Below, piece after piece: positions 20,461-59,013 of a stretch of DNA of 64,000 nucleotides. Origin of the DNA: Candidatus Uhrbacteria bacterium (GTDB taxonomy: Bacteria > Patescibacteriota > Patescibacteriia > UBA9934 > GWF2-40-263); NCBI GenBank assembly GCA_037131775.1, contig JBAXQK010000001.1:76708-140707 (forward strand), in the 5' to 3' direction. The stretch's first letter is position 1. The number at the start of each line of letters is the position of its first letter. A program made the position numbers and the translations under genes. The notes below the pieces were generated by a model. That model saw only the letters and a program-made list of their open reading frames with translations, did no database searches and had not been told where the DNA came from.

Positions 20461-20502
20461 GTTCCCCCTCCTCATAGGGAGGAGGGGTCAGGGGTAGTCG
20501 TC
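20461..20502. repeat. Family-1 palindromic element copy A, intergenic (between gltX stop and peptidase start)
   Basis: GTTCCCCCTCCTCATAGGGAGGAGGGGTCAGGGGTAGTCGTC. The core CCCCTCCTC-ATAGG-GAGGAGGGG is a perfect palindrome. Confidence 0.85.
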
Positions 20503-20509
20503 GCGCTTC

Positions 20510-21973
20510 CTAGAGCAACCCAATCGCACTTGCGAGCCTGCGCATCGTCTCATCCTTGCCAAGCGCCCACGCGAGCTCGAACGGGCTCGGGGATGCGGCA
20601 CGGCCGGACAATGCCACGCGGGTCGGCCAAAGGACATTTCCATTCGACAAGCCCTTTGCCTCAATATACGCCTTTATCGACGTTTCGACCATGGAGATCT
20701 CGTTCCAGACGCTCTCGTCGGCTATCGCGAGATGGTCGCGTACGCCCGCGAGGTTCGCCTTGCTGTCCGCCGCGTCCGCCTTCTTCCAAACGAGTATCGC
20801 CGGATCGTACGCGGGGACCGAGACGTATGCGTCGACGATCTCGACGATATCCGTAAGTCGCTCCATCCGCGTCTTCTCAATTGCGCAGATCTTTTCGAGC
20901 AGCGCCGCGTCGACCGTCTTCCCGGAAGCGTCGAGAAACGGACGGACGAGTGCGACGAGCTCCGACGCCGTTTTCTTCATGATGTACTGTCCGTTCATCC
21001 AGTTGAGCTTCGCCTGGTCGAATACCGCCCCAGACTTGTTGATCTTCGCCAGGTCGAACAGCTCGATCAGCTCGTCGATCGCATAGATCTCCTGGTCCGC
21101 CTTCGGGTTGAACCCGAGCAGCGCGACGAAATTGACGAGTGCTTCCGGAAGATATCCCTTCGCGAGATAGTCCTCGACCGCGACATCTCCCTGGCGCTTC
21201 GACAGCTTCGACTTGTCCGGATTGAGGAGGAGCGGCAGGTGAGCGAACAACGGCGCGTCCCAGCCGAACAGACGGTATAGGATGACGTGCTTCGGCGTGG
21301 ACGAGATCCATTCCTCGCCGCGAATGACGTGGGTGATCTTCATCAGGTGGTCGTCGACGACGACGGCCATGTGGTACGTCGGAAACCCGTCGGACTTGAT
21401 CAGAACCTGGTCGTCGACCTCCGCGTTGTTAATCGTAATCGTTCCCCGGATCACGTCCTCGAAGGAAGTCTCTCCTTCCGGGACTCGGAGGCGGAGAACA
21501 TGCGATTCTCCGGCGCCCAAGCGTCGTAAAACTTCCTCAGATGACAAGGATGCGCAGTGGCGATCGTACTTCGTCGACAGCTTGGCAATCTCCTGCTGCT
21601 TGCGAAGACCGTCGAGCCGCTCCGACGAGCAGAAACAGACGTACGCGACACCAGCGTCGAGAAGCTGTTTCGCGTATTGCGCGTAGATCGGAAGTCGCTC
21701 CGACTGGATGTACGGCCCAACGTCGCCGGTTTGCGCGATCACTCCGTCGACGAGCTTCGGACCCTCGTCCGGCAACAGGTTCACACGCTCGAACATCCGC
21801 AGAAGCGACTCGACAGCCCCAGGAACGAACCGCTCGCGGTCCGTGTCTTCTATGCGAAGGATATACGTCCCGGTTTGCTGACGAGCAAGCAAATAGTTGT
21901 ACAGCGCCGTGCGAAGACCGCCGACATGGAGAAAGCCTGTTGGAGACGGGGCGAAGCGGGTTCGAACGGACAT
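20510..21973 (-). CDS. gltX: Glutamyl-tRNA synthetase
   Basis: MSVRTRFAPSPTGFLHVGG (HIGH region) and KLSKR (KMSKS). Start taken at the internal Met. Confidence 0.95.
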   Translation of the reverse strand: MSVRTRFAPSPTGFLHVGGLRTALYNYLLARQQTGTYILRIEDTDRERFVPGAVESLLRMFERVNLLPDEGPKLVDGVIAQTGDVGPYIQSERLPIYAQYAKQLLDAGVAYVCFCSSERLDGLRKQQEIAKLSTKYDRHCASLSSEEVLRRLGAGESHVLRLRVPEGETSFEDVIRGTITINNAEVDDQVLIKSDGFPTYHMAVVVDDHLMKITHVIRGEEWISSTPKHVILYRLFGWDAPLFAHLPLLLNPDKSKLSKRQGDVAVEDYLAKGYLPEALVNFVALLGFNPKADQEIYAIDELIELFDLAKINKSGAVFDQAKLNWMNGQYIMKKTASELVALVRPFLDASGKTVDAALLEKICAIEKTRMERLTDIVEIVDAYVSVPAYDPAILVWKKADAADSKANLAGVRDHLAIADESVWNEISMVETSIKAYIEAKGLSNGNVLWPTRVALSGRAASPSPFELAWALGKDETMRRLASAIGLL

Positions 21974-21978
21974 AATTT

Positions 21979-22821
21979 CTATTTTCCCTTGAGTTGATTG
22001 ATAATTTCCGGAACCGTCGCGCGACACGCGGCGACGAACCGATGCCGCCTCAGTGTATCCCAGACGACGACCGCTGGGAAGACGATCGCGGCGTTGAAAA
22101 TCCGCTTGAATCGGCGCGGTTCGATGACGAGTCGCCAGACCCATTCGAGCCCGACGCGACGGACGAACAAGGGCGCGCGTCGCTTCGTCCCGGCAATCAT
22201 GTCGAAGGCGCCGCCGACGCCGATGTAGATGCGGGGTTGGTTAATTGGTAAATTGGCCAAATGGTCATGTGACGAACGAAGCGCCTCGATGAAACGTTCC
22301 TGCTTGCCCATGCCAAGCGCGACGGCGACGACGTCTGCATTTTCGAAGCTGGTGAGTTTCGTGCGGTCGCACGAAAGTGACCCGGTATGAGTTTTTTCGT
22401 TCGAGACGATTCCTACGTCGACGACCGTGACGTCGAGTCCCGCGAACTGCCGGCGCATCGATTCCGCCGCTGCTTCCGCGACGCCCGGGCCGCCGCCGAC
22501 GAGGACGAGGCGCTTCCCCTGCCCCGCGCAGAGCTTTGCGAGCAGCAAGAGAGTGTCGACGCCGGTATGACGGTTCGACAAACGGTTTCCCGTCAGCGCC
22601 GGAATCGCAAATCGGAGTCCCACGCCATCGGGCAAGGACAGATCCGCGCGATTCAACAGGTCGACGAACGACGGATCGCGTCGCGCGGCGAGGACGAACT
22701 CGGGGTTCGGGGTGACGATCGTATTCGACGAATCCGACGACAGCCACCCGGACAGAAGGTCCGTCAGCTCGCCTGTGGACAAGTCGGAAATACGCACGCC
22801 GAACAGTTCAAAAACTCTCAT
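21979..22821 (-). CDS. WecB/TagA/CpsF-family glycosyltransferase (GT26)
   Basis: The pattern ...TPNPEFV...DG.GL...G(x)nLVGG... resembles UDP-ManNAc(A) transferases. Start taken at MRVFELFGVRI. Confidence 0.7.
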   Translation of the reverse strand: MRVFELFGVRISDLSTGELTDLLSGWLSSDSSNTIVTPNPEFVLAARRDPSFVDLLNRADLSLPDGVGLRFAIPALTGNRLSNRHTGVDTLLLLAKLCAGQGKRLVLVGGGPGVAEAAAESMRRQFAGLDVTVVDVGIVSNEKTHTGSLSCDRTKLTSFENADVVAVALGMGKQERFIEALRSSHDHLANLPINQPRIYIGVGGAFDMIAGTKRRAPLFVRRVGLEWVWRLVIEPRRFKRIFNAAIVFPAVVVWDTLRRHRFVAACRATVPEIINQLKGK

Positions 22822-22947
22822 ATTCAGCAAAAATACTAGCATTTCTACTTGACTTTTGCAAATTAGCACTCTATACTACCGAGTGCCAACTTGTTGCTTT
22901 CGTCATCCTCCAAACTACAAACAACCAAGTACCCAAAACCCCCCCCT

Positions 22948-25578
22948 ATGTTGCCAAACAACTTTACCCTCAAATCCCAAGAGGCGCTTCAGACGGCGAA
23001 CAACCTGGCCGTACAGGGTGGGCAGCCGGCGCTCGAACCGATCCACCTGGTCGCTTCCCTTTTGTCGCAGGACGAGGGGGTCGTGCCGGCGATCATGAAC
23101 AAGATTGTCGGGAATCCTTCCGACCTCCGGGCCGAGGTCGAGAAGATTATCGACGCGCTGCCGAAGCAGAAGGCGCAGGGCGGCGGGATCGGGCAGATTT
23201 TTTTGGCGCCTGAGATGGCGACCGTGCTTTCGGAGTCCGCGACGATCGCGAAGCAGTTCAAGGACGATTATATTTCTACCGAGCACCTCCTGCTTGGGCT
23301 ATTGAAAAACAAGAACGTCGCGCGGTTCCTTGGCAAATACAAGATGACCGACGAGACAGTGCTCCAGGCGCTCAAGGACATTCGCGGGACCCAGCGCGTC
23401 GACAGCCAGGAGCCCGAGACGAAATACCAGGCGATCAAAAAGTACAGCCGCAACCTGACGGACGCCGCGCGCGTCGGCGAGCTCGACCCGGTGATCGGAC
23501 GCGACGCCGAAATTCGTCGCGTCATGCAAGTCCTGTCGCGTCGCACAAAAAACAACCCGGTGCTCATCGGCGAGGCGGGCGTGGGAAAGACGGCGATCAT
23601 CGAGGGGCTTGCCCAGCGCATCGTGGACGGGGACGTTCCCGAGATGCTGAAGGAAAAGGAAATCATTGCGCTCGACGTGGGGTCGATGGTAGCCGGGACG
23701 AAGTATCGCGGCGAGTTTGAGGACCGTCTCAAGGCCGTGCTCAAGGAGATCGAAGGATCGGGCGGAAAGATCATCCTGTTCATCGACGAGCTCCACACGC
23801 TCGTCGGCGCGGGCACGACCGAGGGGAGCTCGCTCGACGCGGCCAACATGCTGAAGCCCGCGCTTGCTCGCGGAAAGCTCCGCGCGGTCGGAGCGACGAC
23901 GCTCAAGGAGTACCAGCGCTATATCGAAAAGGACCCCGCGCTCGAACGCCGGTTCCAACCGGTGATCGTCGACGAGCCGAGCGTCGAGGATAGCATCGCG
24001 ATCTTGCGCGGCATCAAGGAAAAATATGAGCTCCATCACGGCGTGCGCGTCTCGGACCCGAGCATCGTCGCCGCCGCCGAGCTGTCGCACCGCTATATCA
24101 CCGACCGCCAGCTGCCCGACAAGGCCGTCGACCTGATGGACGAGGCCGCCGCCGCGCTGCGCATGCAGATTGACTCGATGCCGGAGGAGCTCGACATGCT
24201 GAAGCGCGACCTGATCCGCCACGAGATCGAGAGGAAGGCTCTCGAGAAGGAGGAGGACAAGGACTCAAAGGCGCGACTCGGCGAGATCGAGCGTCAGATC
24301 GCGGATTTGCGCGAGAAGACCGACGCGCTTGAGGGAAAGTGGCGGAACGAGAAGGACAAGATCGGCGAGATTCAGTCGGCAAAGAGCGCCGTCGAGAAAC
24401 TGCGCGCCGAGGCCGAGATCGCCGAGCGCCGCGGGGACCTCGAGACGGTTGCGAAGATCCGCTACGGGACGATTCCCGCCGAGGAGCGTCGTTTGAAAGA
24501 GGCGGAGGTCGCGCTGACCCAGCTCCAGCAAGATCGCGGATTGCTCAAACAGGTCGTCACGGAGGAAGACATCGCCGCGGTCGTGAGCCGATGGACGTCG
24601 ATCCCCGTTTCAAAGATGCTCGAGTCCGAGCTGAAGAAGCTGGCTCGCATGGAGGACGAGCTGACCAAACGCGTCGTCGGCCAGAAGGAGGCCATCGCCG
24701 CCGTGTCGAACGCGCTGCGACGGTCGCGCGCCGGAATCTCGGAATCGAACCGGCCGATCGGGTCGTTCATCTTCCTCGGCCCGACGGGCGTGGGAAAGAC
24801 CGAGCTCGCCCGCGCCCTCGCCGGGTTCATGTTCAACGACGAGTCCGCGCTGGTTCGCCTCGACATGAGCGAGTACATGGAAAAGCACGCCGTCTCCAAG
24901 ATCCTCGGTTCCCCGCCGGGATACGTCGGCCACGAGGAGGGCGGCCAGCTCACGGAGATCGTGCGTCGCAAGCCGTACTCGGTGCTGCTGTTCGACGAGA
25001 TCGAGAAGGCGCACCCGGACACGTTCAACGTCCTCCTCCAGATTCTCGACGAGGGGCATCTCACCGACGCGAAGGGCCGCAAGGTCAACTTCAAGAACAC
25101 GGTGATCATCATGACGTCGAACATCGGGTCCGACGTGATCCTCGACATGGGAAAGACGCGCGGAACCATCGGGTTCAGCGAAGACGAGACCGGCGCGGGC
25201 GAAGAGGGCGAGATCCAGGAACGCGTCATGGGGATGCTCCGCGACCACTTCCGCCCGGAGTTCCTGAACCGCGTCGACGAGATCATCATGTTCCACGCGC
25301 TGACCGAGGCGCAGATTGGCGAGATCGTGAACCTCCAGCTCACCCGGACGTTCGAGCGCCTTGAGAAGGAACGCGGAATCGTCCTCTCCGTCTCGCCCGC
25401 CGCGAAGAAACTGTTGGCACGGAAGGGGTACGATCCGGCGTACGGCGCGCGCCCGCTGAAGCGCGTCATCCAGCGTCTGATTCTCGACCCGCTGGCGATG
25501 CGAATCGTCGAGGGAAGCCTGAAGGAAGGACAGTCCGTGGCCATCGGGGCAAAGGCAGACGAGATCGTGATCTCGTAG
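22948..25578 (+). CDS. clpB: Chaperone ClpB (AAA+ disaggregase)
   Basis: Two Walker A sites ([16 protein letters not shown]), a middle coiled-coil, and the Clp N-domain. Start at [14 protein letters not shown] in a ccCCTATG context. Confidence 0.95.
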
Positions 25579-27880: not shown

Positions 27881-29803
27881 GTGATTGCCGAAGTTTATCC
27901 AATCAAGCGGATGCCGCGCCGGTTCGACGTCTTCGACTATGAGATCCCGACCGGCATGAATCTCGCACGAGGATCCGGCGTCCGGATCCCGTTTCGGTTC
28001 GGAGAGATGCGCGGAATCGTCGCGCGAGTCACGGACGGTGCGGGACGTGGAAAGACGATCAAGCCCGTCTCGGCGATCCTGCCGGACCTTTCGATGACCG
28101 ACGACGAGCTCTCCTGCTTCGAGGACGTCGCGTTCGATACCGCGCAAAGCGTCTCGGCCGTCCTCCACGCGACGATCCCGATTCCGGGGAAACGCGACGT
28201 TTCGTCCGCCCGTCGATCCCTCAGCGTTCCCCCTCCTCATAGGGAGGAGGGGTCAGGGGTGGTCGTCTCGCCCCTCACGATCTCCGCCCGCGAGGCCCCG
28301 CAAATCTCTCAGATTGTCGCGGAACTCTCCGAGCGATCCGAGGCATTCGTCGCCATCCCCGACCTCAAGCGCGCCGCCGTCCTCATCGCGACCTACCGCC
28401 GCGACCACCCGACCGAACCCGTCCTCGTCCTCGCGCCGAACGTTCGCGATGCACGCCTCATCGCGTCCCGACTCTCTTACGTTTCCCCTCCTCATAGGGA
28501 GGAGGGGTCAGGGGTGGTCGTCGTGACCGGCGAGGAGTCTCCGGCCGAGCGTTTTCGCCGCTGGAAGCTCTGGCGCGGCCGAAGGACCGGCCTCCTCGTC
28601 GGCTCCCGCGTCGCGGCTCTCTGGACCCATCCGACGCTCGGCGCGGTATTCCTCGTACGCTCGGGACACCCCAACCATAAGCAGGACGACCGAAACCCAC
28701 GCTTCGACGCGCGATTCGTGGGACAGGTTCTCCATGGGCGACTTTCCGCCAAGCGCTTTCACCTAGACGTCATGCCAAGCACCGAGGACCTCGTTGGATT
28801 CGGCGCGGCAAATCTCCTCGGCCCGACCGCCCGTCCCGAAACGATCATCGCCGACATGACGATCGAGCGCGCCGGTTCCCCGCACCCGTGCCTCGGCAAC
28901 AGCCTTGTCATCGAGATCGCCCAGACACTCGCCGAGAACCGGCGCGTCATCTGCGCGTACAATCTCAAGGGCGTGTCGCGACGATTGCAATGCGCCGACT
29001 GCGGACACCGGTTTCCGTGCGAGAACTGCGGCGGAGTGCTCGCACCGTACGTGACGACGGTCCAATGCCACCGATGCGGTCGGACCGAGCCGCTGCCGGC
29101 CTCTTGTCCCGCATGCCATAAGAACAAGCTCACGCCGAAGGGATTTGGAAACCGCGCGGTCGCCGCGGCATTGCAGTCGGCGTTTCCCGAGGCGACCGTC
29201 GCATGCCTCGATCGCGATACGGACGTGGACGGCGCGAAGGACGCGGACATTCTCGTCGTCACGCGCCATTACGTCGAGAACGTCTTCGACCCCTTTCACC
29301 CACCGGACGTCGGTCTCGTCGCTGAGCTTGATGGGGACCGGTCCTTGTTCGAGCCGTCCTACCGTGCCCTCGAGAAATCCCTCCTTAACGCCGAGGAGTG
29401 GCGCGGAATTGCCCACGCCTGCCGCGCCAAGTTCCTCATCCAGACCGAGATGCCCGATTTGTTCCGCAACGCCCTCTCGCAGCCGGAAAAAGCCCTTCTC
29501 GACGACCTCGCCATCCGCAAGTCCTACGCCCAGCCCCCGTATGTCCGCGCCATGACCGTCGAATTCAAGCCCGACGAGCCAGGCGAACAGGCCCAAGGAA
29601 TCGCCAAGGCCATCGAAGCGATCCGCGCCGTCTCCACGTCGACCGAGATTTCGAAGCTCCCCTCTCCTTCCAAAGGAGAGGGTCAGGGTGAGGTCTACGC
29701 CCGTATCCGCCTCGCCGTCCCCCCGTCCGACGAGCTTGCCGTTCTCCAGGCCTTTTCCCCGTTCGACGACTCGTATATCATTGACACAAGGCCGTTAGAA
29801 TGA
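27881..29803 (+). CDS. priA: Primosomal protein N' (PriA)-like, with Cys4 zinc-binding domain but no recognisable Walker A/B motifs (GTG start)
   Basis: N-terminal 3'-DNA-binding-like domain. PriA-like blocks (VLVLAPNV..., RRWKLWRGRRTGLLVGSRVAAL) and CADCGH...CENCGG...CHRCG...CPAC. The positions where GxGKT and DEEH are expected read IPDLKRAA and RSGH. Confidence 0.65.
   Translation: MIAEVYPIKRMPRRFDVFDYEIPTGMNLARGSGVRIPFRFGEMRGIVARVTDGAGRGKTIKPVSAILPDLSMTDDELSCFEDVAFDTAQSVSAVLHATIPIPGKRDVSSARRSLSVPPPHREEGSGVVVSPLTISAREAPQISQIVAELSERSEAFVAIPDLKRAAVLIATYRRDHPTEPVLVLAPNVRDARLIASRLSYVSPPHREEGSGVVVVTGEESPAERFRRWKLWRGRRTGLLVGSRVAALWTHPTLGAVFLVRSGHPNHKQDDRNPRFDARFVGQVLHGRLSAKRFHLDVMPSTEDLVGFGAANLLGPTARPETIIADMTIERAGSPHPCLGNSLVIEIAQTLAENRRVICAYNLKGVSRRLQCADCGHRFPCENCGGVLAPYVTTVQCHRCGRTEPLPASCPACHKNKLTPKGFGNRAVAAALQSAFPEATVACLDRDTDVDGAKDADILVVTRHYVENVFDPFHPPDVGLVAELDGDRSLFEPSYRALEKSLLNAEEWRGIAHACRAKFLIQTEMPDLFRNALSQPEKALLDDLAIRKSYAQPPYVRAMTVEFKPDEPGEQAQGIAKAIEAIRAVSTSTEISKLPSPSKGEGQGEVYARIRLAVPPSDELAVLQAFSPFDDSYIIDTRPLE
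28226..28267. repeat. Family-1 palindromic element copy B, in-frame in priA-like gene
   Basis: GTTCCCCCTCCTCATAGGGAGGAGGGGTCAGGGGTGGTCGTC encodes VPPPHREEGSGVVV. Confidence 0.9.
28481..28522. repeat. Family-1 palindromic element copy C, in-frame in priA-like gene
   Basis: GTTTCCCCTCCTCATAGGGAGGAGGGGTCAGGGGTGGTCGTC encodes VSPPHREEGSGVVV. Confidence 0.9.
29659..29695. repeat. Diverged family-1-like palindromic element (variant 3) in-frame near priA C-terminus
   Basis: CCCCTCTCCTT-CCA-AAGGAGAGGG-TCAGGGTGAGGTC: same architecture (palindrome plus TCAGGG(G)TG(R)GGTC tail) and same frame, encoding PSPSKGEGQGEV. Confidence 0.6.
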
Positions 29804-33603: not shown

Positions 33604-34301
33604 AGGCGGTGCTTCGTCGCGATAATCGTTCTGGCCTCGTCGTAGCGTCGAACCGAAGACGGCCTCCAGCCAAGCCGGTGCCATGGAATCCGATAGATGA
33701 ACGACGGGCGCCACTGGGAGATGCCCGGGCGGTCGGAGCGGTCGATGACCTGGAAGAGCTCTCGATCGACGAACGTGCCGACATGGCCCTGTTCGAGCAT
33801 CGTGAGCCAGACATCCCAATCCTGGAAACGCCTGATCGACGGGTCGAACCCGGGGAAATGCTCGCGGCGGACGAGCGACGTCGTGTGGACGAAGTTCATG
33901 CGGCGGAGTCGGTTCGCGTCGAACGAAAAGGACGAAAATGACTTCCAACCGAATCGAAACCCGCTGTACGCGTAGCTTGCCTCCGGATGGTCGACAAGCG
34001 CCCGTTCCATCGTCGCGAGCATGTCTGGCGCCATGACCACGTCCGCGTCGCAGAAGATCACGAGGTCGCCGGTCGCCCGCGCGAACCCATTGTTCCGCGC
34101 GACGTTCCCGCCCTGGTTCGACTGCGTCACGATCGTGATGCGATCGGCAAACGCGGCAAGGACGCGTCCGGTCTCGTCCGTGCTGCCGTCGTTCACGACG
34201 ATGATCTCGTCGGGCTTCCGCGTCTGAACGAAAAGAGAGTTCAGACACTCCGAGAGCGTCTTCGCGTGCTGGTAGGACGGGATGATGACGGAGATCGTCA
34301 C
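33600..34301 (-). CDS. Family 2 glycosyltransferase
   Basis: MTISVIIPSYQHAKTL...VNDGSTDET...DADV... GT-A fold. Confidence 0.75.
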   Translation of the reverse strand: MTISVIIPSYQHAKTLSECLNSLFVQTRKPDEIIVVNDGSTDETGRVLAAFADRITIVTQSNQGGNVARNNGFARATGDLVIFCDADVVMAPDMLATMERALVDHPEASYAYSGFRFGWKSFSSFSFDANRLRRMNFVHTTSLVRREHFPGFDPSIRRFQDWDVWLTMLEQGHVGTFVDRELFQVIDRSDRPGISQWRPSFIYRIPWHRLGWRPSSVRRYDEARTIIATKHRL

Positions 34302-35347
34302 AGATATTCCTTCAATTTCTCAAGCTGTACTTCGTTCGTAAACTCGTCGGCAGCCCGCCGATAGGCCGCTTCGCCCAGCCGCCGCCGTTCCTCGTCGCTC
34401 ATGGCCAAACGATACACCGCGTCCGCGAGCGCCGCAATGTCCCCGTCCTTGACGAGAAGGCCTGTCATTCCGTTGAGAACAGCCTCGTCGACGCCCCGCA
34501 TGTCCGTCGCAACCGACGGGACGCCATGCAGCGCGGCCTCGAGATACACCATGCCGAATCCTTCGCGGTCGACGGAATCCGCCACGACCGGCTCGACGAA
34601 TATGTCGGCGGCGGCGTAATGGTCGGAGAGCTGATCGTCGGCCACGTCGCGAGCGATCGTCACTCGGTCGTCGAGACCAAGCTCGGCGATGCGTCGCGCG
34701 ATCGTCTCGAGACAAGGGCCGTCGCCGACGATGTCGTATTGAACGGATAGGTCGGGATGGTCGCGCCGAAGCAGCGACATCGCGTCGAGAACGCGAAGGT
34801 GGCCTTTGCGAGGGACGAGCCGAGCAACGGTAAGCAAACGAAAGACGTGCGCGACGACCACCCCTGACCCCTCCTCCCTATGAGGAGGGGGAACATGTTT
34901 GGATATCGTCGGGTATACGACGACCGTCCTCTCAACCCCAAACTCATTCTTCACTTCCCTCTCCAACGCCTTCGAGTTCGCCACGACCACCTCCGCACCG
35001 CGCAGGACCATCCCAGCGACGATTCGCTTTGCCCAGCGCGTCTTAGCGAGCCCAATGTCCATCCCGTGAACGATCACGACGTACGACGTTCCCGTCATCC
35101 ACTTGAACGCAAGCGCCGCCGTCCCGATCGGCAAGACGTGGCTGACGACAATCGTCGTGTCAACACCGAGTGTCGACGCTTGGCGATCGTGAAAGAATTG
35201 TCGAAGCGCCTGCCACCACCGCGTCGACGGATCCAAGACGGCCACTTCCATCGAATCTGAAAAGTACGCCGCGAGATTCCCGAGGTATCTGGCCACTCCG
35301 CCCCGCGACGGCGCGTAATCAGTCGTGTATAGCCGTGTCTTCGGCAT
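34298..35347 (-). CDS. Family 4 (GT-B) glycosyltransferase carrying an in-frame family-1 element
   Basis: N-terminal ...YAPSRGGVARYL... and C-terminal EGFGMVYLEAALHGVPSVATD (E-x7-E-like). Start at MPKTRLYT. Confidence 0.75.
   Translation of the reverse strand: MPKTRLYTTDYAPSRGGVARYLGNLAAYFSDSMEVAVLDPSTRWWQALRQFFHDRQASTLGVDTTIVVSHVLPIGTAALAFKWMTGTSYVVIVHGMDIGLAKTRWAKRIVAGMVLRGAEVVVANSKALEREVKNEFGVERTVVVYPTISKHVPPPHREEGSGVVVAHVFRLLTVARLVPRKGHLRVLDAMSLLRRDHPDLSVQYDIVGDGPCLETIARRIAELGLDDRVTIARDVADDQLSDHYAAADIFVEPVVADSVDREGFGMVYLEAALHGVPSVATDMRGVDEAVLNGMTGLLVKDGDIAALADAVYRLAMSDEERRRLGEAAYRRAADEFTNEVQLEKLKEYL
34853..34894. repeat. Family-1 palindromic element copy D (reverse orientation on + strand, same orientation relative to host gene), in-frame in GT4 gene
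   Basis: Reverse complement equals copy B exactly. Encodes VPPPHREEGSGVVV between the two Rossmann-like halves. Confidence 0.9.
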
Positions 35348-36791
35348 AGGCGGTCTTTCGACGGATAAGCTGGATGATTCCAGTGAGATGATGCTTTTGG
35401 ACCGATCGGGACAACACGAGCATGACGGCATAGACGAACGCGGCAAACGGAAGGGCGAGGTAGAATCCGGTCTCGGGACGAACGAGGCGCGTAGCGAACC
35501 CCATCACGGCGGCGGAACAGATGATCGGGACGATCGTTTTCAGCAGACGCGCGAACCCGTATTCCGGGATCACCTGCGGGACAAACCAGAAGCCGGAGAC
35601 GAACAGGAACGTGAAGCTGATCACGCCGGAATAGGCCGCTCCGAGGATGCCGAACGTCGGAATCAGGAACAGGTTGCTTATCACGTTGATGACCATCGTA
35701 ACGCCCATCACCGCGGTCTTCGTTGCCTGCCGATTCGCGGCATTAAGGAGCGAGCCGACGGGAAAGTCGAGGAAGATGGGAATGAGGACGAAGATGAGGA
35801 CCGCGAGTACCGGCGCGGCGTTCGCATATCCGTCCCCGGCGAGAGCAATCGCGTCCCCGGCAACGGCCCAGAGACCGAACGCGATCGGGGCCGCGAGAAT
35901 CGTCACGTACCAAACAGCCTCGTCGAACAGTCTCGTCAGGGCGTCCGAGTCCTTCTTCCCCACCATCGCGCTCATTCCCGGATACAGCGCGGCGACGAAC
36001 GCCATCGGGAGGAACTGAAACGCGTACGTGAACTTATAGGCCACGGCATAGACGCCGACCGCGGCGGTTCCGACGACCTTGGAGATGATGAGCGAATCGA
36101 CGTACGAGTAAACCTTCACGAACATCCCGGCGAGCGCGAACGGAAGGGCGGCGGCGAGCAACGCCTTGATAGCCTGTTTGTCGAAGTGAGGCCGCAGAAC
36201 CGACCAGCCGTAGATCGAAACGACGTGGCGCGCGGAATAGATCGCGTTGAAGGTCGAACCGACGAGAAGCGCAAGAACGAGAAGGTGAAGCGACGGGTGC
36301 GTCAAAAGGACGATTCCGCCGAACAGGAGCGTGCACGTCTGTCCCACGAAGATCCCGAGCGACTCGAACCGCAGCGTGTGGTGTCCGCGGAGGACGCCGT
36401 AAAACAACAGGCTCATCGCGTCCGCCAGCATCACGAGGGACGCCACGAGGACGAGCTCGCGGACGGTCGCATCGTATCCCAGCGCCCATGACATCGCCAC
36501 CGCGCCGACCGTCGCCAGCGCCATGAACGGAATCTTGAGCCAGACGGCGCGTCGGATCAGGTCCGCGGCGCGCTCCGGAACCTTCGCGACGTCGCGGATC
36601 ACCACCGGCGTCACGCCAAGGTCCGTGATCGTCGAAAAGATCGTCGTAATCGACAGCGCGAGGAAATAATCCCCCGTCGCCTCGGGCCGCATGACGCGCG
36701 CGAGCAACAAGAAATAGAAGAACGCGAGGATCTTCTGCGCGATGGACGCGGCGGTGAGATAGAGGGTATTTTTTGCCACGGGAGAGGACAT
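35319..36791 (-). CDS. Polysaccharide/oligosaccharide flippase (MOP superfamily, Wzx-like)
   Basis: Polytopic, 12-14 TM segments. N-terminal MSSPVAKNTLYLTAASIAQKILAFFYFLLLAR typical of Wzx/PST. Confidence 0.65.
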   Translation of the reverse strand: MSSPVAKNTLYLTAASIAQKILAFFYFLLLARVMRPEATGDYFLALSITTIFSTITDLGVTPVVIRDVAKVPERAADLIRRAVWLKIPFMALATVGAVAMSWALGYDATVRELVLVASLVMLADAMSLLFYGVLRGHHTLRFESLGIFVGQTCTLLFGGIVLLTHPSLHLLVLALLVGSTFNAIYSARHVVSIYGWSVLRPHFDKQAIKALLAAALPFALAGMFVKVYSYVDSLIISKVVGTAAVGVYAVAYKFTYAFQFLPMAFVAALYPGMSAMVGKKDSDALTRLFDEAVWYVTILAAPIAFGLWAVAGDAIALAGDGYANAAPVLAVLIFVLIPIFLDFPVGSLLNAANRQATKTAVMGVTMVINVISNLFLIPTFGILGAAYSGVISFTFLFVSGFWFVPQVIPEYGFARLLKTIVPIICSAAVMGFATRLVRPETGFYLALPFAAFVYAVMLVLSRSVQKHHLTGIIQLIRRKTAYAEDTAIHD

Positions 36792-52413: not shown

Positions 52414-53064
52414 ATGAAAACGTCCCATCGGGCAACCATCGTCCTGTTCGTCCTCATGGTCACGACGCTGCTCGTCGGCCAGCGCTTTGGATTCGCTTGG
52501 GCCGGGGGATCAGGATACGTCCCTTCGCAACTCGCTGGAATCGTCGCGATGGTTGGGACGCCTACCGTCGATCATGCCGGGACCATTCGGGATGCCGTTC
52601 TATGGAAATCCGTCGCACGCGGGGAAACCGTCCGAACCATCGCCGGACAGCGCGTCAAGCTTCAAATCGCCCTTGGGCATTCCGTCTCGCTCGATGAGAA
52701 CACGGACGTGACCGTCGAGGAAAACGACGCGGACGGAATCCGGCTCAAGCTCCTTCGCGGCCGCGTCTACGCCGACGCGACGCCAATCGACGGACTCGCC
52801 AAGACGCTGTCCATCGACACGCTCGCTTCGCGGTCGACGATTACGACCGGCGCGATCACGGTCGTCAATTACGATTTCCTCTGGAAGGTTTCCATCGCGC
52901 CCATCGACACGGAGGCGGACGTGGTGGTCGGCGGCGACATGGATTTTCCGACGCGTTCCCCTATGAACGTAAACGACGCGACGGCCAACGTGATTGGCGG
53001 CGCCGCGTCGTTCAACATGTCTGCGCCGGACGTGGCGGACTTTTACGCGTGGGTCAAACGATAA
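52414..53064 (+). CDS. Secreted hypothetical protein, possibly FecR-like beta-sandwich
   Basis: Signal/TM start MKTSHRATIVLFVLMV. The pattern GETVRTIAGQRVKLQIALGHSVSL...TDVTV...GRVY... resembles FecR-domain proteins. Weak. Confidence 0.35.
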   Translation: MKTSHRATIVLFVLMVTTLLVGQRFGFAWAGGSGYVPSQLAGIVAMVGTPTVDHAGTIRDAVLWKSVARGETVRTIAGQRVKLQIALGHSVSLDENTDVTVEENDADGIRLKLLRGRVYADATPIDGLAKTLSIDTLASRSTITTGAITVVNYDFLWKVSIAPIDTEADVVVGGDMDFPTRSPMNVNDATANVIGGAASFNMSAPDVADFYAWVKR

Positions 53065-54169
53065 TCCCGCCGCCGATCATCTCCTCGCCGTCGTAGATCA
53101 CGATCGACTGTCCGGACGTGACGGCGCGGACAGGGTCGTCGAACTCGACGGTGATCTGCTCCGTGTCGACCACCCCTGACCCCTCCTGCCTATCAGGAGG
53201 GGAAACTTGGGTGGGGGGGACTTGGGTGATGGAGACGATCGTGCACGCTTGCAGCGGTTGGCGATAGCGGACGCGGGCGGAGAGCTTTTCTCCGACGACG
53301 GGGCGACGGAACCAGTTCGTAGACGTCGCGACGAGTTTCTTTTCAAACAACGCCGGATGAAAATTGCTCGAGACGATGAGCTGCTTCGTCTCGGGTTTTT
53401 TGTCGACCACGTAATACGGCGTTCCTCCCCCGACGTTCAGGCCGTGGCGCTGACCGATCGTATAGAACGCGACCCCCTCGTGCGTACCCACCACTTCCCC
53501 GCCCGTCGTGACGATCTCGCCCGGATCCTCCGGAATCCGTTCCTTCAAGAACTCACGGATGTCGACTTCCCCAACGAAACAAATCCCCGTCGAATCCTTC
53601 TTCTCCGCCGTCGACAACCCAAGCTCGCGCGCCTTCTCGCGAACCTCAGGCTTCGTCATCGCGCCGACCGGAAACAACAAGCGCGGCAGCACGGCCTTTG
53701 GGATCGCCCAGAGAAAGTACGTCTGGTCCTTGTTATCGTCGGAACCGGCGAGGATCCGGCCGTCGACGATCCGCGCATAATGCCCAGTCGCGACGAACGC
53801 GCAGCCGAGACGGTCCGCCTCTTTGACGAACAGGTCGAACTTTACGTACTTATTGCACAGCACGTCGGGATTCGGCGTCCGTCCCGCCGCGTACTCCTGA
53901 TACAGATTCTCGACGACGAGGTCGCGATACTGCTTCTCGAAGTCGAACGTGACGAACGGAATCCCAAGCTTCGCCGCCACCCGCATCGCGTCACGCCGCT
54001 CGGTGCGCCAGCCGCACTCCTTCGTCTCTCCATCGCACTTGATCTCCGTCCAGTTCTTCATGAACGCCCCGATCACCTCGTACCCCTGCTCCAACAGCAA
54101 CGCCGCGGCCACGGACGAATCCACGCCGCCGGACATGCCGAGAAGAACTTTCTTGGGAGCTTCTTCCAT
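53054..54169 (-). CDS. mnmA: tRNA-specific 2-thiouridylase MnmA, with an in-frame family-1 element near the C-terminus
   Basis: PP-loop VLLGMSGGVDSSVAA. Catalytic cysteines. Start taken at MEEAPKKVLLG. Confidence 0.9.
   Translation of the reverse strand: MEEAPKKVLLGMSGGVDSSVAAALLLEQGYEVIGAFMKNWTEIKCDGETKECGWRTERRDAMRVAAKLGIPFVTFDFEKQYRDLVVENLYQEYAAGRTPNPDVLCNKYVKFDLFVKEADRLGCAFVATGHYARIVDGRILAGSDDNKDQTYFLWAIPKAVLPRLLFPVGAMTKPEVREKARELGLSTAEKKDSTGICFVGEVDIREFLKERIPEDPGEIVTTGGEVVGTHEGVAFYTIGQRHGLNVGGGTPYYVVDKKPETKQLIVSSNFHPALFEKKLVATSTNWFRRPVVGEKLSARVRYRQPLQACTIVSITQVPPTQVSPPDRQEGSGVVDTEQITVEFDDPVRAVTSGQSIVIYDGEEMIGGGIIV
53168..53206. repeat. Family-1 palindromic element copy E (variant 2: CCCCTCCTG-CCTAT-CAGGAGGGG), in-frame in mnmA
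   Basis: GACCACCCCTGACCCCTCCTGCCTATCAGGAGGGGAAAC encodes (minus strand) VSPPDRQEGSGVV. Confidence 0.9.
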
Positions 54170-54249
54170 ATGATTTCCGGAGTTTGCCACAGATTTGGCC
54201 AATTGACAATCCTCCGATCCCATTGGATACTTACCGGAGAGGTCGAACC

Positions 54250-54660
54250 ATGGAACCAAAGCTCATTCTGATCGTCTGTCCAAAGACCCACCAGACCTTC
54301 TTCGAACGGTCGCTTCGCGAGGCGCTCGACAAGGAGCGCATCTGCTACGTCTTCGTCCACTGCGACACCGTCGCCGATGCCGCCGCGAGCATGGACCAGG
54401 CCGGATACCCGGACTTCGTCGTGTGCGACAAGGACGCCGGAGCCGAAGACGCGTACTTCGACCTCCTGCGCAAGGTCCGCCACGCCGGCGAGTCGATGCC
54501 GTTCGTCGTCTGGAGCACGTCGTTCCATCCGGATACGGCCGGGCTGATCACCAGACTGAACGCACTCACCGTCTCGTGGGGCACCCCCGGCGGCCTCGCC
54601 CGCCTCAACCGCTACGCCGTCACCCTCCTCCACGGCCAGCGCCGCGCGCTCGTGTCCTGA
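54250..54660 (+). CDS. Hypothetical protein, possibly a degenerate CheY-like receiver fold
   Basis: Alternating beta/alpha pattern (LILIVCPK..., DFVVCDKD, PFVVWSTS). No canonical acidic pocket. Weak. Confidence 0.3.
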   Translation: MEPKLILIVCPKTHQTFFERSLREALDKERICYVFVHCDTVADAAASMDQAGYPDFVVCDKDAGAEDAYFDLLRKVRHAGESMPFVVWSTSFHPDTAGLITRLNALTVSWGTPGGLARLNRYAVTLLHGQRRALVS

Positions 54661-54663
54661 TCT

Positions 54664-54690: not shown

Positions 54691-54741
54691 TCCGTTGACA
54701 TCGGGAATTTTTTATGATAGCCTTTCGCCAGGAGAAATTCA

Positions 54742-55347: not shown

Positions 55348-55362
55348 TTGGCCGTTCTTTTT
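55328..55362 (+). terminator. Stop-codon-containing terminator hairpin AACGGC-taattg-GCCGTT + T-run (shared cassette)
   Basis: CACGAACGGCTAATTGGCCGTTCTTTTTC. Nearly identical to the 3' end of paralog 2. Confidence 0.55.
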
Positions 55363-55400
55363 CTTGCGCAAAATAAAACGACCCAACGCTCGGCGTCGGG

Positions 55401-55931: not shown

Positions 55932-55949
55932 CCGCGCAGGAGAATTTCC

Positions 55950-56720
55950 ATGCAGAAGCATTTTCCGAGCATCAGAACGCCATACGAGGCCAGGTCTGCG
56001 TCCGATGACGCGCGAAGAAACGCGAAAGGGATCGCGTTCAGCATTGGACTCGTGGTTGCCAACACGGCCAACATCGGATGGGTTGCAAACACGTGGTTCC
56101 ACATCCTGAGCTCCCATCCGACCGTCGGACTGTTCCTTGGGTCCTCTGCCGCCGGGACGTTCCTTCTCGCCTACCACGGCTGGCTTCTCGTCAGTCTCCG
56201 ACGCTCGTTCCATGCGCGGAAGATCGTCAAGAGCGTCGACGGCGGCACGGCATGCGATCCGAAGATCGCCGACGCGCTGACAATCGTCGGCATCTCGCTC
56301 GTCACGGCGGTCGAGCGGTACGACGCGATGGTCAAGCGGTGGAGGGCATACGAGGACGGCGTCGGGCTCGAGCTCATCGATCGCCTTCCCGACGAGGATA
56401 CGATCCGCGACGCGATGGTCACGGCGGGAGAGGAGCTGGAGGCGTACGCAAAGGGGATCGACCTTCTCTTCAGGCGCCGGGCCCTCATCAAGGAGCTGTC
56501 CGCGTCGGCCGTCACCAATCCGCTCCCGACGTTCTCATCGACCCTCGACAATCTCCGCCTCGCCGACGAGCGTCTCAAGAACGCGTTCGCCCTGCGCGAA
56601 AACCTCCCCGCCGTCGACCCCGAGCGCCTCCTCGCCGAGCCGCTCAACCTCGCCAAGCTCAACGCGCTGGACAAGGACATGGCAAGGATCCCCGTCCCTG
56701 CGCAACTCACGAACGGCTAA
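55950..56720 (+). CDS. Hypothetical membrane-anchored helical protein (paralog 2)
   Basis: Same architecture as 54742-55347. GGAG RBS upstream. C-terminus ...AQLTNG followed by the same terminator cassette. Confidence 0.35.
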   Translation: MQKHFPSIRTPYEARSASDDARRNAKGIAFSIGLVVANTANIGWVANTWFHILSSHPTVGLFLGSSAAGTFLLAYHGWLLVSLRRSFHARKIVKSVDGGTACDPKIADALTIVGISLVTAVERYDAMVKRWRAYEDGVGLELIDRLPDEDTIRDAMVTAGEELEAYAKGIDLLFRRRALIKELSASAVTNPLPTFSSTLDNLRLADERLKNAFALRENLPAVDPERLLAEPLNLAKLNALDKDMARIPVPAQLTNG

Positions 56721-56776
56721 ATGGCCGTTCTTTTTTTCGAAATCGAAAATCCGCCGCATTTGCGGCGGATTATTGT
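56703..56776. terminator. Bidirectional terminator region: + strand AACGGC-taaatg-GCCGTT + T7; - strand TCCGCCGC-attt-GCGGCGGA followed by a T-rich run
   Basis: Two adjacent perfect stems between the convergent paralog-2 and T4CP-like genes. Confidence 0.55.
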
Positions 56777-56778
56777 AT

Positions 56779-59013
56779 CTAGTCGAACTTGATCGTCTGG
56801 CCCGAGTAGACCGTACCGGTCTTCAGCGGAACCCAGCCGTCGTTGTCGTCGGATGGCGACGGGGCGATCGGCGCGGGTGGTTTCGGGGTTGGGGCGGGCG
56901 TCGTGACGGGAGTCGGAACCGGAGCCGGATTACTACCAACGCTCGGTGTTGGCAGTTGCGGTTTGGGAGCGACGGGTTGTTGTAGGTGTGGGTTTGAGTT
57001 GTTTGTAGTTTGTGGCGCTACGGGCGGCCGAGGCTTCGGATTCTGCAGGAACGCCTGTGGGGAATTCGGGCCGCCGGTGCCCTTGTTAGGGCGCTTGCGT
57101 CGCGTGTCCTTGCCTGGGACGAAGGGGCGCGGTCCTGTCGCGGCCGGGGTTGGCTGCGGTTGTCGCGGAGTCGACGGAGAGCCGTGCGTCGCGGCAACCG
57201 CGATCGGCGCGGCTGACGTGACCGTCGGGGGGCTGTTCAGCGGGGATGAGAGCATTTGGGACATGAAGTCGGTCGCGGGCGCTGGCGTCGAGACGACGGG
57301 CTTCGGCGCGACGACCACCCCTGACCCCTCCTGCCTATCAGGAGGGGAAACGTGCTTGATGACCGGGGCTGCCGGGGGCCTGGCGACTGGGGCCAATGCG
57401 GTGAGCGATACGGACGACACGGGACGGGCCGCCGCGACGGGCGGACGATCGACGGGCGCGCTGTCCAACGAGCGCAATGGCGGCGGAGGCGGGGACGGCG
57501 GGCGCCTCGTGTCCTTGCGATCCTTCCCTTTCGCGCGTTCCTCCTTCACAATCTCGATGCACTCCTCGCAATAGATCGGACGGCTCGTGTCGAGCTGCAC
57601 CGCGAGCGCGATATCCTTGTTGCAGCGCGAACACTTATAGTCGAACCTTGGCTTCTTCGATCCTTTCGCATCTTTCTTCTTTGCTTCCATCTCCGCGACC
57701 ATCTTCCCGATGGACTCGTCGTCGCCCATCCCGGTCCACTTCATGATCTTGTCGGCGATCTCCTCGCGCGGCGTCGTGTACCGCTCGCGGCTCACCTTGA
57801 TCACCTTTTCCTCCGACCCGGTGCGCTTGGCAATCGGCGGAAGCGTCATTGCGGAGAACGGCTGGCTCGTGACGCCGTCGATGAGCAGCTTGAGATAAAT
57901 GTTGTACTTCGGCAGGTTGATAATGTCCTCCGGCAAAAAGCGCGGGGCAAACTCCGTTTCCATGTACGCGGCGTCCGGCGAACCGACGCGGAAGGTGACG
58001 ATCGTTCCGACGTTTCCAAACACCGCCTCGCGTACCTCGTCGGAGAGCTGGGCGATGTACTGGTGGGCCATCGTCAGGCAGAGGCGGTACTTGCGCGCCT
58101 CGGACAGGATGCCGGCGAACGATTCCGTCGCGAAGTTCTGGAACTCGTCCACGTACATGTAAAAGTCCTTGCGCTCGTGCTCCGGCTGGTCCACGCGTTC
58201 CATGGCCGACAGCTGCAGCTTCGTGATCAGAAGCCCTCCGAGAAGGCGCATGTTGTCCTCGCCGATGCGGCCCTTCGACAGGTTGATGATCAGGATCTTC
58301 TGCTCGTCCATCAGCTGGCGGATGTTGATGGTCGACTTTACCTGGGCGACGATGTTGCGAATGACCGAGGCGGACAAAAACTGACCGATCTTGTTCTGGA
58401 TCGGGGCCACGGCCTCCTGCGCGTACTTCTCCTGGTAGCTGGCGAATTCCACCAGCCAGAACTGCTTCACCACCGGATCCTGCACGTTCGCGACGATCTT
58501 GCGTCGGAAGTCCGCGTCGGACAGCATGCGATTGATCCCAAGCAGCGTCGACCCCGGGTTGTCGAGCAGCGCGAGGATCGCGTTGTTCAAAATGTACTCC
58601 ATGCGCGCGCTCCAGAGGTTCTCCCAGAGCTTCTTGAACACGCCCATCATTCCGGACGCGACCAGGTGCTTCGTCTTCTCGCTGACCGTCTCCAAGATGT
58701 TGAATCCGATCGGAAAATCAAGGTCGGCCGGATTGAAGTAGATGACGTCGTTTATGCGCCAGCTCGGGATATAGTCGATAAGCCGCTCGGCCGTGTCGCC
58801 GTGCGGGTCGATGTACGCGCATCCGTGACCGGCATAGATGTCGGTAAGGATGAGATTTTCGAGCAGAACCGTCTTGCCCATGCCCGTCTTTCCGATCACG
58901 TACACGTGGCGGCGGCGGTCATCGGTCTTAACGCCAAATTTCCGCATCTGATTGCGGAAATTGGTGCGCGCGAAATAGTTTACCTCGTTCTCGTGATCGT
59001 GGGCGTAGCTCAT
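56779..59013 (-). CDS. Type IV secretion coupling-protein-like P-loop ATPase (TraD/TraG/VirD4 family), soluble, with C-terminal zinc ribbon and Pro-rich tail
   Basis: Walker A GKTGMGKT; DPHGD; Walker B YVDEFQNF; ...ARKYRLCLTMAHQYIAQL... like the T4CP C-terminal motif; CSRCN...CEEC ribbon. The tail contains family-1 copy F. Confidence 0.5.
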   Translation of the reverse strand: MSYAHDHENEVNYFARTNFRNQMRKFGVKTDDRRRHVYVIGKTGMGKTVLLENLILTDIYAGHGCAYIDPHGDTAERLIDYIPSWRINDVIYFNPADLDFPIGFNILETVSEKTKHLVASGMMGVFKKLWENLWSARMEYILNNAILALLDNPGSTLLGINRMLSDADFRRKIVANVQDPVVKQFWLVEFASYQEKYAQEAVAPIQNKIGQFLSASVIRNIVAQVKSTINIRQLMDEQKILIINLSKGRIGEDNMRLLGGLLITKLQLSAMERVDQPEHERKDFYMYVDEFQNFATESFAGILSEARKYRLCLTMAHQYIAQLSDEVREAVFGNVGTIVTFRVGSPDAAYMETEFAPRFLPEDIINLPKYNIYLKLLIDGVTSQPFSAMTLPPIAKRTGSEEKVIKVSRERYTTPREEIADKIMKWTGMGDDESIGKMVAEMEAKKKDAKGSKKPRFDYKCSRCNKDIALAVQLDTSRPIYCEECIEIVKEERAKGKDRKDTRRPPSPPPPPLRSLDSAPVDRPPVAAARPVSSVSLTALAPVARPPAAPVIKHVSPPDRQEGSGVVVAPKPVVSTPAPATDFMSQMLSSPLNSPPTVTSAAPIAVAATHGSPSTPRQPQPTPAATGPRPFVPGKDTRRKRPNKGTGGPNSPQAFLQNPKPRPPVAPQTTNNSNPHLQQPVAPKPQLPTPSVGSNPAPVPTPVTTPAPTPKPPAPIAPSPSDDNDGWVPLKTGTVYSGQTIKFD
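57313..57351. repeat. Family-1 palindromic element copy F (variant 2), in-frame in the T4CP-like gene tail
   Basis: GACCACCCCTGACCCCTCCTGCCTATCAGGAGGGGAAAC encodes (minus strand) VSPPDRQEGSGVVV. Confidence 0.9.

Follow-up and report, generated by a model that had tools for sequence, protein, structure and literature searches.

The DNA analysed here is a 64-kb stretch (the window) of a genome of Candidatus Uhrbacteria, a lineage of the Candidate Phyla Radiation (CPR), and positions are counted from its first nucleotide. It carries seven copies of a palindromic repeat unit of 42–45 nucleotides (nt), six of them inside protein-coding genes, and is otherwise ordinary housekeeping DNA with no transposase. 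The copies fall into two subfamilies, A-type (six units) and B-type (one unit), and a third variant, C, occurs in relatives. Four genes host the intragenic copies: (i) a PriA-like gene for a protein of 630 residues (P0001; 27911–29803, + strand; assigned by Pfam and alignment), with three units; (ii) a glycosyltransferase family 4 (GT4) gene (34298–35446, − strand; open reading frame (ORF) limits, the actual start probably lying downstream); (iii) mnmA (53054–54259, − strand; ORF limits, with the Pfam match beginning at residue 36); and (iv) a gene for a TrwB/TraG-like ATPase resembling type IV coupling proteins (T4CP-like; 56779–59049, − strand; assigned by Pfam). A first-pass annotation, made from the sequence alone, had named the same four hosts, and Pfam agrees.

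All six intragenic units lie in the sense orientation and in frame with their hosts. The PriA-like gene holds an A-type unit at 28226–28267 (+; site 1, peptide VPPPHREEGSGVVV), a second at 28481–28522 (+; site 2, peptide VSPPHREEGSGVVV), and the B-type unit at 29657–29698 (+; site 3, CCCTCTCCTT-CCA-AAGGAGAGGG-TCA-GGGTGAGGT, peptide LPSPSKGEGQGEVY). The remaining intragenic copies are A-type and on the − strand: 34850–34894 in the linker between the Rossmann halves of the GT4 glycosyltransferase, 53165–53206 in the C-terminal beta-barrel of MnmA, and 57307–57351 in the Pro/Ala-rich C-terminal tail of the T4CP-like ATPase. The only intergenic copy (A-type, 20461–20505, +) takes up most of a 61-nt spacer between gltX (stop at 20510) and an M23 peptidase gene (likely ATG at 20448), antisense to both neighbours. 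Public gene calls begin this peptidase at an ATG in the hairpin loop (20475; MRRGNEIDN-MKKLFF...), which is probably a repeat artefact because the ortholog at the related locus L136 begins at the downstream MKK.

With up to two mismatches allowed, a scan of the window for the 23-nt core CCCCTCCTSATAGGSAGGAGGGG gives six matches, three on the + strand (20465, 28230, and 28485) and three on the − strand (34868, 53180, and 57325), whereas 100 dinucleotide-preserving shuffles give none. In the cores at 53180 and 57325, a C-G pair is replaced by G-C, a compensatory change under which the 9+5+9 palindrome is kept. With its flanks, the A-type unit reads GTTYCCCCTCCTSATAGGSAGGAGGGGTCAGGGGTGGTCGTC, and GCG is frequently added at the 3′ end, bringing the length to 45 nt. 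The diverged copy, CTCCCCTCTCCTTCCAAAGGAGAGGGTCAGGGTGAGGTCTAC, represents the second subfamily, with a perfect 10-bp stem of its own and a related tail. A rule-based triplex-motif finder picks out precisely these seven sites across the 64 kb, with no hit in any of 20 shuffles, while two independent scans of the window for pyrimidine/purine hairpins add no further copies. The seven elements listed in the first-pass annotation, the diverged copy among them, are thus real and lie where it placed them, but the starts it gave for the copies at 53165 and 57307 were 3 nt short. An Rfam scan of the whole 64 kb gives nothing at the gathering threshold, including no tRNA or rRNA, and on three related loci it gives tRNAs only (E up to 0.1). 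A protein search with a 110-residue concatenation of all unit reading frames yields a single match at E=4.6. ViennaRNA folds the unit as a hairpin only (RNA, −19.9 kcal/mol; DNA, −10.7 kcal/mol).

The first-pass annotation did not recognise the family, which has the block architecture of the BoxC/PIT/TM repeats, the 3′ tail being a mirror-repeat third strand. Holder et al. 2015 (PMC4666352) describe BoxC/PIT/TMECO as a class II purine-motif intrastrand triplex in which a loop separates a C-rich block from a G-rich block and a 3-nt loop separates the latter from a further G-rich block, with second loops of TTA or CCG and triplex formation in vitro demonstrated by circular dichroism and nuclear magnetic resonance. 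In the present units, a 3–7-nt loop joins a pyrimidine block to its purine complement, and a 3-nt loop (TCA, TTA, or CCG) leads on to a G/T block that mirrors the purines. In the unit at 28226, the segments are GTTC, CCCCTCCTC (28230–28238), ATAGG, GAGGAGGGG (28244–28252), TCA, GGGGTGGT (28256–28263), and CGTC. The third strand is the 3′ TCAGGGGTGGT, which changes together with the stem from one window subfamily to the other: A-type units read CCCCTCCTS...SAGGAGGGG-TCA-GGGGTGGT and B-type units CCCTCTCCTT...AAGGAGAGGG-TCA-GGGTGAGGT, such that the third block tracks its own stem in each case. Canonical mirror triads (G·G plus T·A or A·A) number 8 in the A-type (8/8), 9 in the B-type, and 10 in E. 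coli BoxC. The loops likewise fall within the layout, with ATAGG (5 nt) and TCA in the A-type and CCA or TAAA followed by TCA, or by CCG in L136, in the B-type. The TMECO consensus CCCTCNCCC-N3-6-GGGNGAGGG-N3-GGGNGAGGG is not matched by the A-type blocks, and the B-type is near it without being identical. Judged by their sequence, the window elements are therefore members of the class and not of the E. coli subfamily.

A wider superfamily was collected from a metagenome collection with the gapped pattern CCCCTCCT-N5-9-AGGAGGGGTYAGGGG, giving 157 distinct copies among the matches listed, and features outside the pattern are conserved in this set. The ninth stem pair is Watson-Crick in 138 of the 157 listed copies and uses all four pair types (shuffles: mean 55, maximum 71), four tail positions are 95–97% triad-compatible, and the flanks show TT on the 5′ side and WGGT past GGGG. 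Where stems are degenerate, T.G pairs outnumber C.A pairs 20 to 6 (10 to 0 at the ninth pair), which suggests that selection acts on the G-rich strand in its single-stranded form. Since a purine-motif triplex is not formed in RNA (Holder et al. 2015, PMC4666352), a structure at the DNA level is favoured. The hosts among the matches listed span 28–68% GC and include other Uhrbacteria (IleRS), Falkowbacteria (RecG), Prevotella, and Nitrospirota-labelled metagenome-assembled genomes (MAGs). Copies in these genomes are mostly intergenic, although in-frame copies in long ORFs recur, in several frames, and some subfamilies form inverted doublets 60–120 nt apart. The ycjD–fabI spacer of E. coli, which we take to be the site where BoxC was first described, contains CCCCTCGCCCCTCTGGGGAGAGGGTTAGGGTGAGGGG, laid out as in the window units; the median number of places with this BoxC unit is 15 per E. 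coli genome.

Two other readings of the conserved tail were considered and dropped. Against a Shine-Dalgarno role of the GGAGG arm and tail, the distance to the start codons is 12–16 nt in Uhrbacteria copies that lie in 5′ untranslated regions, and the motif is equally conserved in a Prevotella contig; Shine-Dalgarno-led initiation is largely missing in Bacteroidota. As for a G-quadruplex, the mirror (triplex) rule accounts for both the T or A found at tail position +1 and the covariation between A-type and B-type.

In the host proteins, the inserts occupy loops, linkers, and tails, as the first-pass annotation had proposed; this placement is borne out for MnmA by a solved structure and for the PriA-like protein by an AlphaFold2 model. 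Compared with E. coli MnmA (PDB 2DER), the window MnmA has 20 extra residues (TQVPPTQVSPPDRQEGSGVV) between two strands of the C-terminal domain; the unit lies within this insertion, which is common to a relative (L003). The insertion in the T4CP-like protein is similarly common to a relative (L010). In the PriA-like model (mean predicted local distance difference test score, pLDDT, of 81), the inserts correspond to residues 106–119, 191–204, and 583–596, and all three are modelled as coil between secondary-structure elements, with lowered pLDDT. The site 1 insert is coil at pLDDT 39–55, that at site 2 is coil whose terminal VVV runs into a beta-strand, and that at site 3 forms a beta-hairpin loop. 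The GT4 unit falls between the two Pfam domain matches, and two different GT4 paralogs, one in the window and one in a relative, carry units in the inter-domain linker. A-type hosts in relatives include an AddA/UvrD-like helicase-nuclease, DnaX, FolD, an Ig-like/alpha-2-macroglobulin-like protein, a lamin-tail-domain protein, and the second GT4 paralog. The window PriA-like protein itself matches only the 3′-DNA-binding domain model in Pfam, canonical helicase-domain PriA proteins match it at E ~1e-18 or weaker, and a Cys-rich region (residues 354–410) is the lowest-confidence part of the model; the CPR protein is possibly a diverged PriA or a reduced form of it.

Of approximately 26 unique sites in Uhrbacteria, 17 are intragenic (13 A-type, 3 B-type, 1 C), and all 17 use stop-free frames although half of the six possible frames contain stops, which rules out an intein, an intron, or translational bypass. 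Among the 13 A-type intragenic sites, 11 are sense in the +0 frame, 2 are antisense, and none uses the open +1 frame (FPLLIGRRGQGWS); at least 11 of 13 in the +0 frame has P ~2e-4 under equal use of the three open frames. The antisense cases include an in-frame copy in a PHP-domain protein (L007, RPPLTPPPYEEGK), and the GT4 linker of L138 holds the third variant in sense orientation beside an antisense A-type. The B-type reading frame is displaced by 1 nt from that of the A-type relative to hairpin and tail, and the A-like register of the B-type contains TGA. Clear intergenic copies (window 20461, L009/L063, and L012) are antisense to their neighbours.

The uniform orientation and frame emphasised in the first-pass annotation thus hold for the window insofar as all intragenic copies are sense and stop-free, whereas the shared frame extends to the five A-type copies and not to the diverged copy, offset by 1 nt. 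As a general rule, the uniformity was a sampling effect of one window, given the antisense in-frame copies in the PHP-domain protein and in the GT4 linker of two relatives. The accompanying suggestion of selection on the peptide or constrained insertion survives in a softer form, as a strong bias is left. Because the frames of A-type and B-type differ and both antisense and intergenic copies exist, the conserved unit is the DNA structure and not the peptide. The units are probably translated within their host proteins, and frame use is most plausibly filtered by tolerance of a hydrophilic Pro/Glu/Gly peptide, which would then be the cause of the bias in frame and orientation. A replichore effect on orientation is not supported: + copies below 30 kb and − copies above 34 kb have an 11% probability of arising by chance, and there is no GC-skew switch.

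The first-pass annotation proposed a search of related genomes for further copies, and 17 more A-type copies exist there, at 15 loci. In an exact-match scan for the A-type core (one genome per species), they are confined to three Candidatus Uhrbacteria MAGs among the genomes scanned; the expansion is lineage-specific. Individual sites were compared across 20 aligned PriA-like orthologs and the DNA of three syntenic loci, L136, L138, and L140. PriA site 1 holds a B-type unit in P0002, P0006, and P0007 and is empty in P0003–P0005 and in distant orthologs. Site 2 is filled in the window and in L140 (84% identical protein) and empty in L136 (90%) and L138, with a net gain of 27 nt; the empty allele already holds the terminal GTCGTC of the element. 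Site 3 holds its unit in the window and L136, whereas L138 and L140 show a clean 39-nt gap. Conversely, a B-type unit in Fmt (net +33 nt) is present in L136 and L138, with the site empty in the window. All more distant orthologs lack the inserts at PriA sites 2 and 3 and in Fmt. The observation that the first-pass annotation named as speaking for conserved protein sequence, the same segment in distant orthologs, is therefore contradicted by the alignments, in which close orthologs miss single copies and distant ones never have them. Since orthologs that are 84–90% identical lack individual copies, these are insertions that have been gained or lost and not conserved protein sequence.

Comparison of filled and empty alleles reveals no target-site duplication; instead, 3–15 target nt are replaced, with some microhomology. 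Classical cut-and-paste transposition accounts for this combination less well than template switching, or repair, at a structure that stalls the polymerase. Three empty alleles contain GG(A/G)AAC or CGAAAC at the insertion point, the reverse complement of the 5′ GTTYC, but a target-site motif was not adopted because these may merely be codons for Gly-Asn turns (n=3).

Occupied sites also change their contents. The gltX–M23 spacer and PriA site 1 hold A-type units in the window and B-type units in L136 with the same right-hand junction, and PriA site 1 is also B-type in L138. The GT4 linker is occupied by an A-type unit in the window, the C variant in L138, and a decayed relic in L136, with an additional antisense A-type a few codons away in both relatives. 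The window contains 6 A-type and 1 B-type units in 64 kb and L136 contains 4 B-type and 1 A-type in 22 kb, such that, through turnover at fixed sites, the dominant subfamily is genome-specific (A in the window, B in L136). It appears that existing sites have been overwritten, which would fit conversion or template switching between copies or the repeated use of hot spots.

The reading we favour, with a probability of roughly 0.78, is that the elements are solo BoxC/PIT/TM triplex-motif units, non-autonomous and selfish or at best neutral, that persist in genes where they are tolerated. On single-stranded DNA, the third block is predicted to fold back and form G·G:C and T·A:T triads; this DNA triplex or hairpin would be the thing recognised or propagated, with a trans-acting nuclease as the candidate spreader. 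Units would be gained, lost, and overwritten at single sites over 10–20% protein divergence. As the genome has almost no intergenic space, persisting copies would be those that selection tolerates inside genes, namely those that (i) have a net length that is a multiple of three, (ii) lie in a stop-free frame, and (iii) encode a flexible peptide of Pro, Gly, and charged residues in a surface loop, domain linker, or disordered tail. Four observations weigh against this reading. Sister genomes carry different subfamilies at the same site (A versus B twice, A versus C once), which simple random insertion leaves unexplained. Mobility is deduced from presence and absence, and repeated loss could account for part of the pattern. 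The 11:2 sense bias, with an empty open +1 frame, could stem from a strand-specific mechanism. Lastly, no enzyme or autonomous copy (transposase, RAYT, or DUF559) was found in the window or in ~190 kb of related Uhrbacteria sequence.

If the 14 residues were a conserved protein module selected for its peptide, with the similarity in DNA secondary, the near-identical peptides of the five window A-type copies, their shared frame, and the bias at 11 of 13 sites in relatives would follow. This is highly improbable, as copies are nearly identical at synonymous positions, orthologs lack the segment, intergenic and antisense copies exist, and the B-type reads the same structure in another frame. The units could also be kept for the benefit of the host as structural signals in DNA or RNA, such as pause sites at domain boundaries, recombination hot spots, or protein-binding sites. 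Strong structural conservation with covariation, the strand-asymmetric wobble pairs, the copies at domain linkers, and the greater rearrangement of E. coli motif loci over controls all accord with such a role. Single copies are nonetheless dispensable in sister genomes, earlier work on the E. coli elements found no promoter, terminator, or expression role, and the RNA result of Holder et al. (PMC4666352) speaks against an RNA form, which leaves host benefit unlikely. Less likely still is that the units are GTAG/CGTC-tagged repetitive extragenic palindromes (REPs) moved by RAYT (Y1 HUH) transposases, like the intragenic REPs of Opitutus terrae or the RPE-4/-6 of Rickettsia conorii. Size and hairpin form are comparable, singletons and inverted dimers occur in both, and host classes are shared with intragenic REPs (PriA, DnaX, AddA/UvrD, RecG, LeuRS, and IleRS). 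A-type units end in ...GGTCGTC and B-type units in ...GTCTAC, the reverse complement of GTAG, and the GGGGWSAS motif present in inverted repeats on the flanks of TIRYT genes is matched by GGGGTCAG. The tag-like tetranucleotides, CGTC in the A-type and CTAC in the B-type, lie 9–12 nt 3′ of the stem, however, and are missing from the superfamily consensus, which among the matches listed has TT (5′ side) and TYA (3′ side) beside the stem. The conserved tail is also better accounted for by a mirror-repeat third strand, and two single-sequence probes of low sensitivity detect no Y1 transposase-like ORF (E <0.3) in 1.05 Mb of unit-bearing loci.

A more serious, though still doubtful, alternative casts the units as ends or solo derivatives of a mobile or self-maintaining DUF559 endonuclease system, analogous to the REP/REPIN–RAYT systems reportedly described by Bertels and Rainey; the nuclease's part would be to recognise or nick the hairpin or triplex, and that of repair to copy the unit. 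DUF559 (PF04480) has a Vsr-like PD-(D/E)XK fold. In 128 metagenome loci fetched solely by hairpin pattern, all seven DUF559 ORFs directly adjoin a unit (jackhmmer E 1e-15 to 1e-76), one of them also confirmed by Pfam (E=3e-26). A Prevotella contig reads unit, ATG...138 residues...TGA, inverted unit, with an end that is ~90% identical to the A-type over hairpin and tail. In E. coli K-12 MG1655, a degenerate unit lies at the stop codon of the DUF559 gene ycjD, with a BoxC unit 168 nt downstream. Of eight DUF559 loci chosen from PLSDB solely on protein similarity, units lie within ~200 nt in five (Deinococcus, Neisseria, Azospirillum, Synechocystis, and Photobacterium) and are almost absent elsewhere in the 10 kb. 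Hairpin-type peptides occur at a terminus of 34 of 120 DUF559 proteins, a sample biased by a chimeric query, versus 1 motif in 38 kb of control protein; in three of these contexts, flanking units are confirmed in the DNA. Inverted doublets without the gene, each resembling a MITE (miniature inverted-repeat transposable element), occur as well. Against this alternative stand the lack of a DUF559 gene in the window and in the ~190 kb of related Uhrbacteria loci and the mixed orientation of flanking units (tails mostly inward, outward in L155, L177, and L181). Moreover, two DUF559 proteins found on many contigs each keep one conserved genomic context, so mobility of the gene is not supported, and units could instead accumulate at, or regulate, DUF559 genes. 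To our knowledge, no explanation of the origin and spread of BoxC/TM repeats has been offered since the 1990s. Tentatively, they might be the ends and solo derivatives of a cross-phylum, DUF559-centred, REPtron-like system in which a PD-(D/E)XK nuclease replaces the HUH transposase, and whose units, in gene-dense CPR genomes, would spread into coding sequence and reshape loops in essential proteins. Holder et al. 2015 (PMC4666352) do not mention ycjD, and among 22 of the 25 open-access papers that mention DUF559 no title or abstract on repeats or triplexes was found. The DUF559 association is treated here as a lead and not as a finding about the window.

Several loci display further arrangements of units around DUF559 genes. 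Alternating-orientation arrays begin 60–180 nt past the gene in Neisseria gonorrhoeae (L179, 5391–6085; 6 units) and Photobacterium sp. GJ3 (L183, 5273–6855; 12 units). On a Synechocystis sp. B12 plasmid (L181, 4223–6747), DUF559 and its flanking units lie between a short 'DUF1156' fragment and a 'hypothetical' ORF, and on a Picosynechococcus PCC 7003 plasmid (L176, 4932–8317) a full-length DUF1156 gene follows DUF559; the DUF1156 gene of the B12 locus may have been split by insertion of the DUF559-unit segment. At L065 (1149–1616), a DUF559 gene is interrupted by an antisense unit (…KFRHHPLTPPHLRRGP…), so the repeats insert into the candidate partner gene too.

Other observations concern units and loci in the relatives. 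In MAG LJ_bin-4636, two intergenic A-type units lie at the apex of a long-palindrome repeat of ~630 nt whose two copies are 83% identical (L011, 7249–7877; L015, 1679–2305, reverse strand; L008, 6874–7187). A third copy misses the central 287 nt, including the unit. The palindrome has a predicted fold of −332 kcal/mol (z = −11.9), its own GTTACTTTCT...AGAAAGTAAC hairpin at each end, and no match in Rfam; a foldback or MITE-like element is one possible identity, a source copy another. Another Candidatus Uhrbacteria sequence of 47% GC (L030, 2531–3091 and 4506–7895) contains 13 triplex-motif units in 13.5 kb, with at least five hairpin-type inserts in IleRS (e.g., APPLTPPPQGGE, PSPARGEGD) and one in RpiB (PPPLRRR...LPVWERVGVRG), and repeat decoration of essential proteins may be general in this lineage of Uhrbacteria. 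Synteny between the loci is broken upstream of clpB, where positions 1–4854 of L138 encode a type I restriction-modification operon with a DUF3800 gene; window 17.9–22.9 kb and L136 1–4940 have the M23 peptidase, gltX, and WecG in place of this operon. Near window position ~52683, where ENA contig k141_1369770 (82,171 nt) and a Logan contig both end, no repeat is seen; the window runs 11 kb past this break, and the nearest unit, in mnmA, is 480 nt away.

Three aspects are new: (i) the intragenic and, as the reading frames suggest, translated lifestyle of triplex-motif repeats in CPR bacteria, (ii) the turnover of subfamilies at fixed sites, and (iii) as a lead, the cross-phylum clustering of this repeat class beside DUF559 genes. 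If the favoured reading of tolerated solo units is correct, the BoxC/PIT/TM class extends to the Candidate Phyla Radiation, where it lives in genes as tolerated protein loops, a behaviour so far best documented for the Rickettsia palindromic elements (RPEs) and some REPs. The lineage would then be a second, independent case of reduced genomes whose essential proteins (PriA, DnaX, MnmA, and aminoacyl-tRNA synthetases) are shaped by selfish DNA. Puzzling Pro/Gly/Glu-rich inserts of CPR proteins would become recognisable as repeat-derived, which would aid annotation, assemblies, and alignments. The clustering with DUF559 in at least seven phyla, if real, would supply a testable candidate for the trans-acting factor still missing for repeats of the BoxC type, and a possible function for a very large uncharacterised nuclease family.

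Among known systems, MITEs that form in-frame fusions (Nezha, QMITE, and Correia; PMC10969869) are likewise non-autonomous and tolerable within ORFs. They differ in having terminal inverted repeats, target-site duplications, and lengths of 50–500 bp, whereas the whole unit measures 42–45 nt and shows no such duplication, and the filled alleles show net gains of +27, +33, and +39 nt with target nt replaced. The GTAG/CGTC REPs (Di Nocera 2013) are short hairpins rich in GC, found singly or as inverted dimers and in a minority of cases within genes, and intragenic REPs prefer replication and repair genes and tRNA synthetases, as do the units here. GTAG REPs flank a dedicated gene, RAYT, which parallels the DUF559 association. 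In contrast to REPs, the units have no stem-adjacent tag, their single-stranded part mirrors the stem, and the associated gene, where present, encodes a Vsr-like PD-(D/E)XK nuclease and not an HUH transposase.

The RPE-1 to -10 elements of Rickettsia are palindromic, lie in frame in unrelated housekeeping genes of a reduced genome at permissive positions, and use one preferred frame. The RPE-like behaviour proposed in the first-pass annotation is therefore well founded, in that the units are dispersed palindromic mini-elements in frame in unrelated genes at loops and linkers. They are not RPEs: the host phylum is another, the unit is 42–45 nt where an RPE-1-type element measures ~100–150 bp and encodes 30–50 residues, and there is neither a sequence relationship nor a triplex-type third block in the RPEs; the short RPE-4/-6 are members of the CGTC-tagged REPs. 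With BoxC/PIT/TMECO, known from E. coli and more than 260 proteobacterial genomes (PMC4666352), the differences are chiefly of location and host. The 23 copies of E. coli K-12 are all intergenic and unlinked to mobility genes (Holder et al. 2015, PMC4666352), whereas 6/7 window units and about two thirds of the unique sites of relatives are in genes and in frame; the host is a CPR bacterium, a group unreported in the PMC4666352 survey, and the A-type blocks deviate from the consensus. Common to both are the block layout and a size of ~35–45 nt, dispersed and highly similar multiple copies within a genome, copy numbers that vary among close relatives, some inverted pairs, and unstable loci, which in E. 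coli are linked with local genome rearrangement more than controls (PMC4666352).

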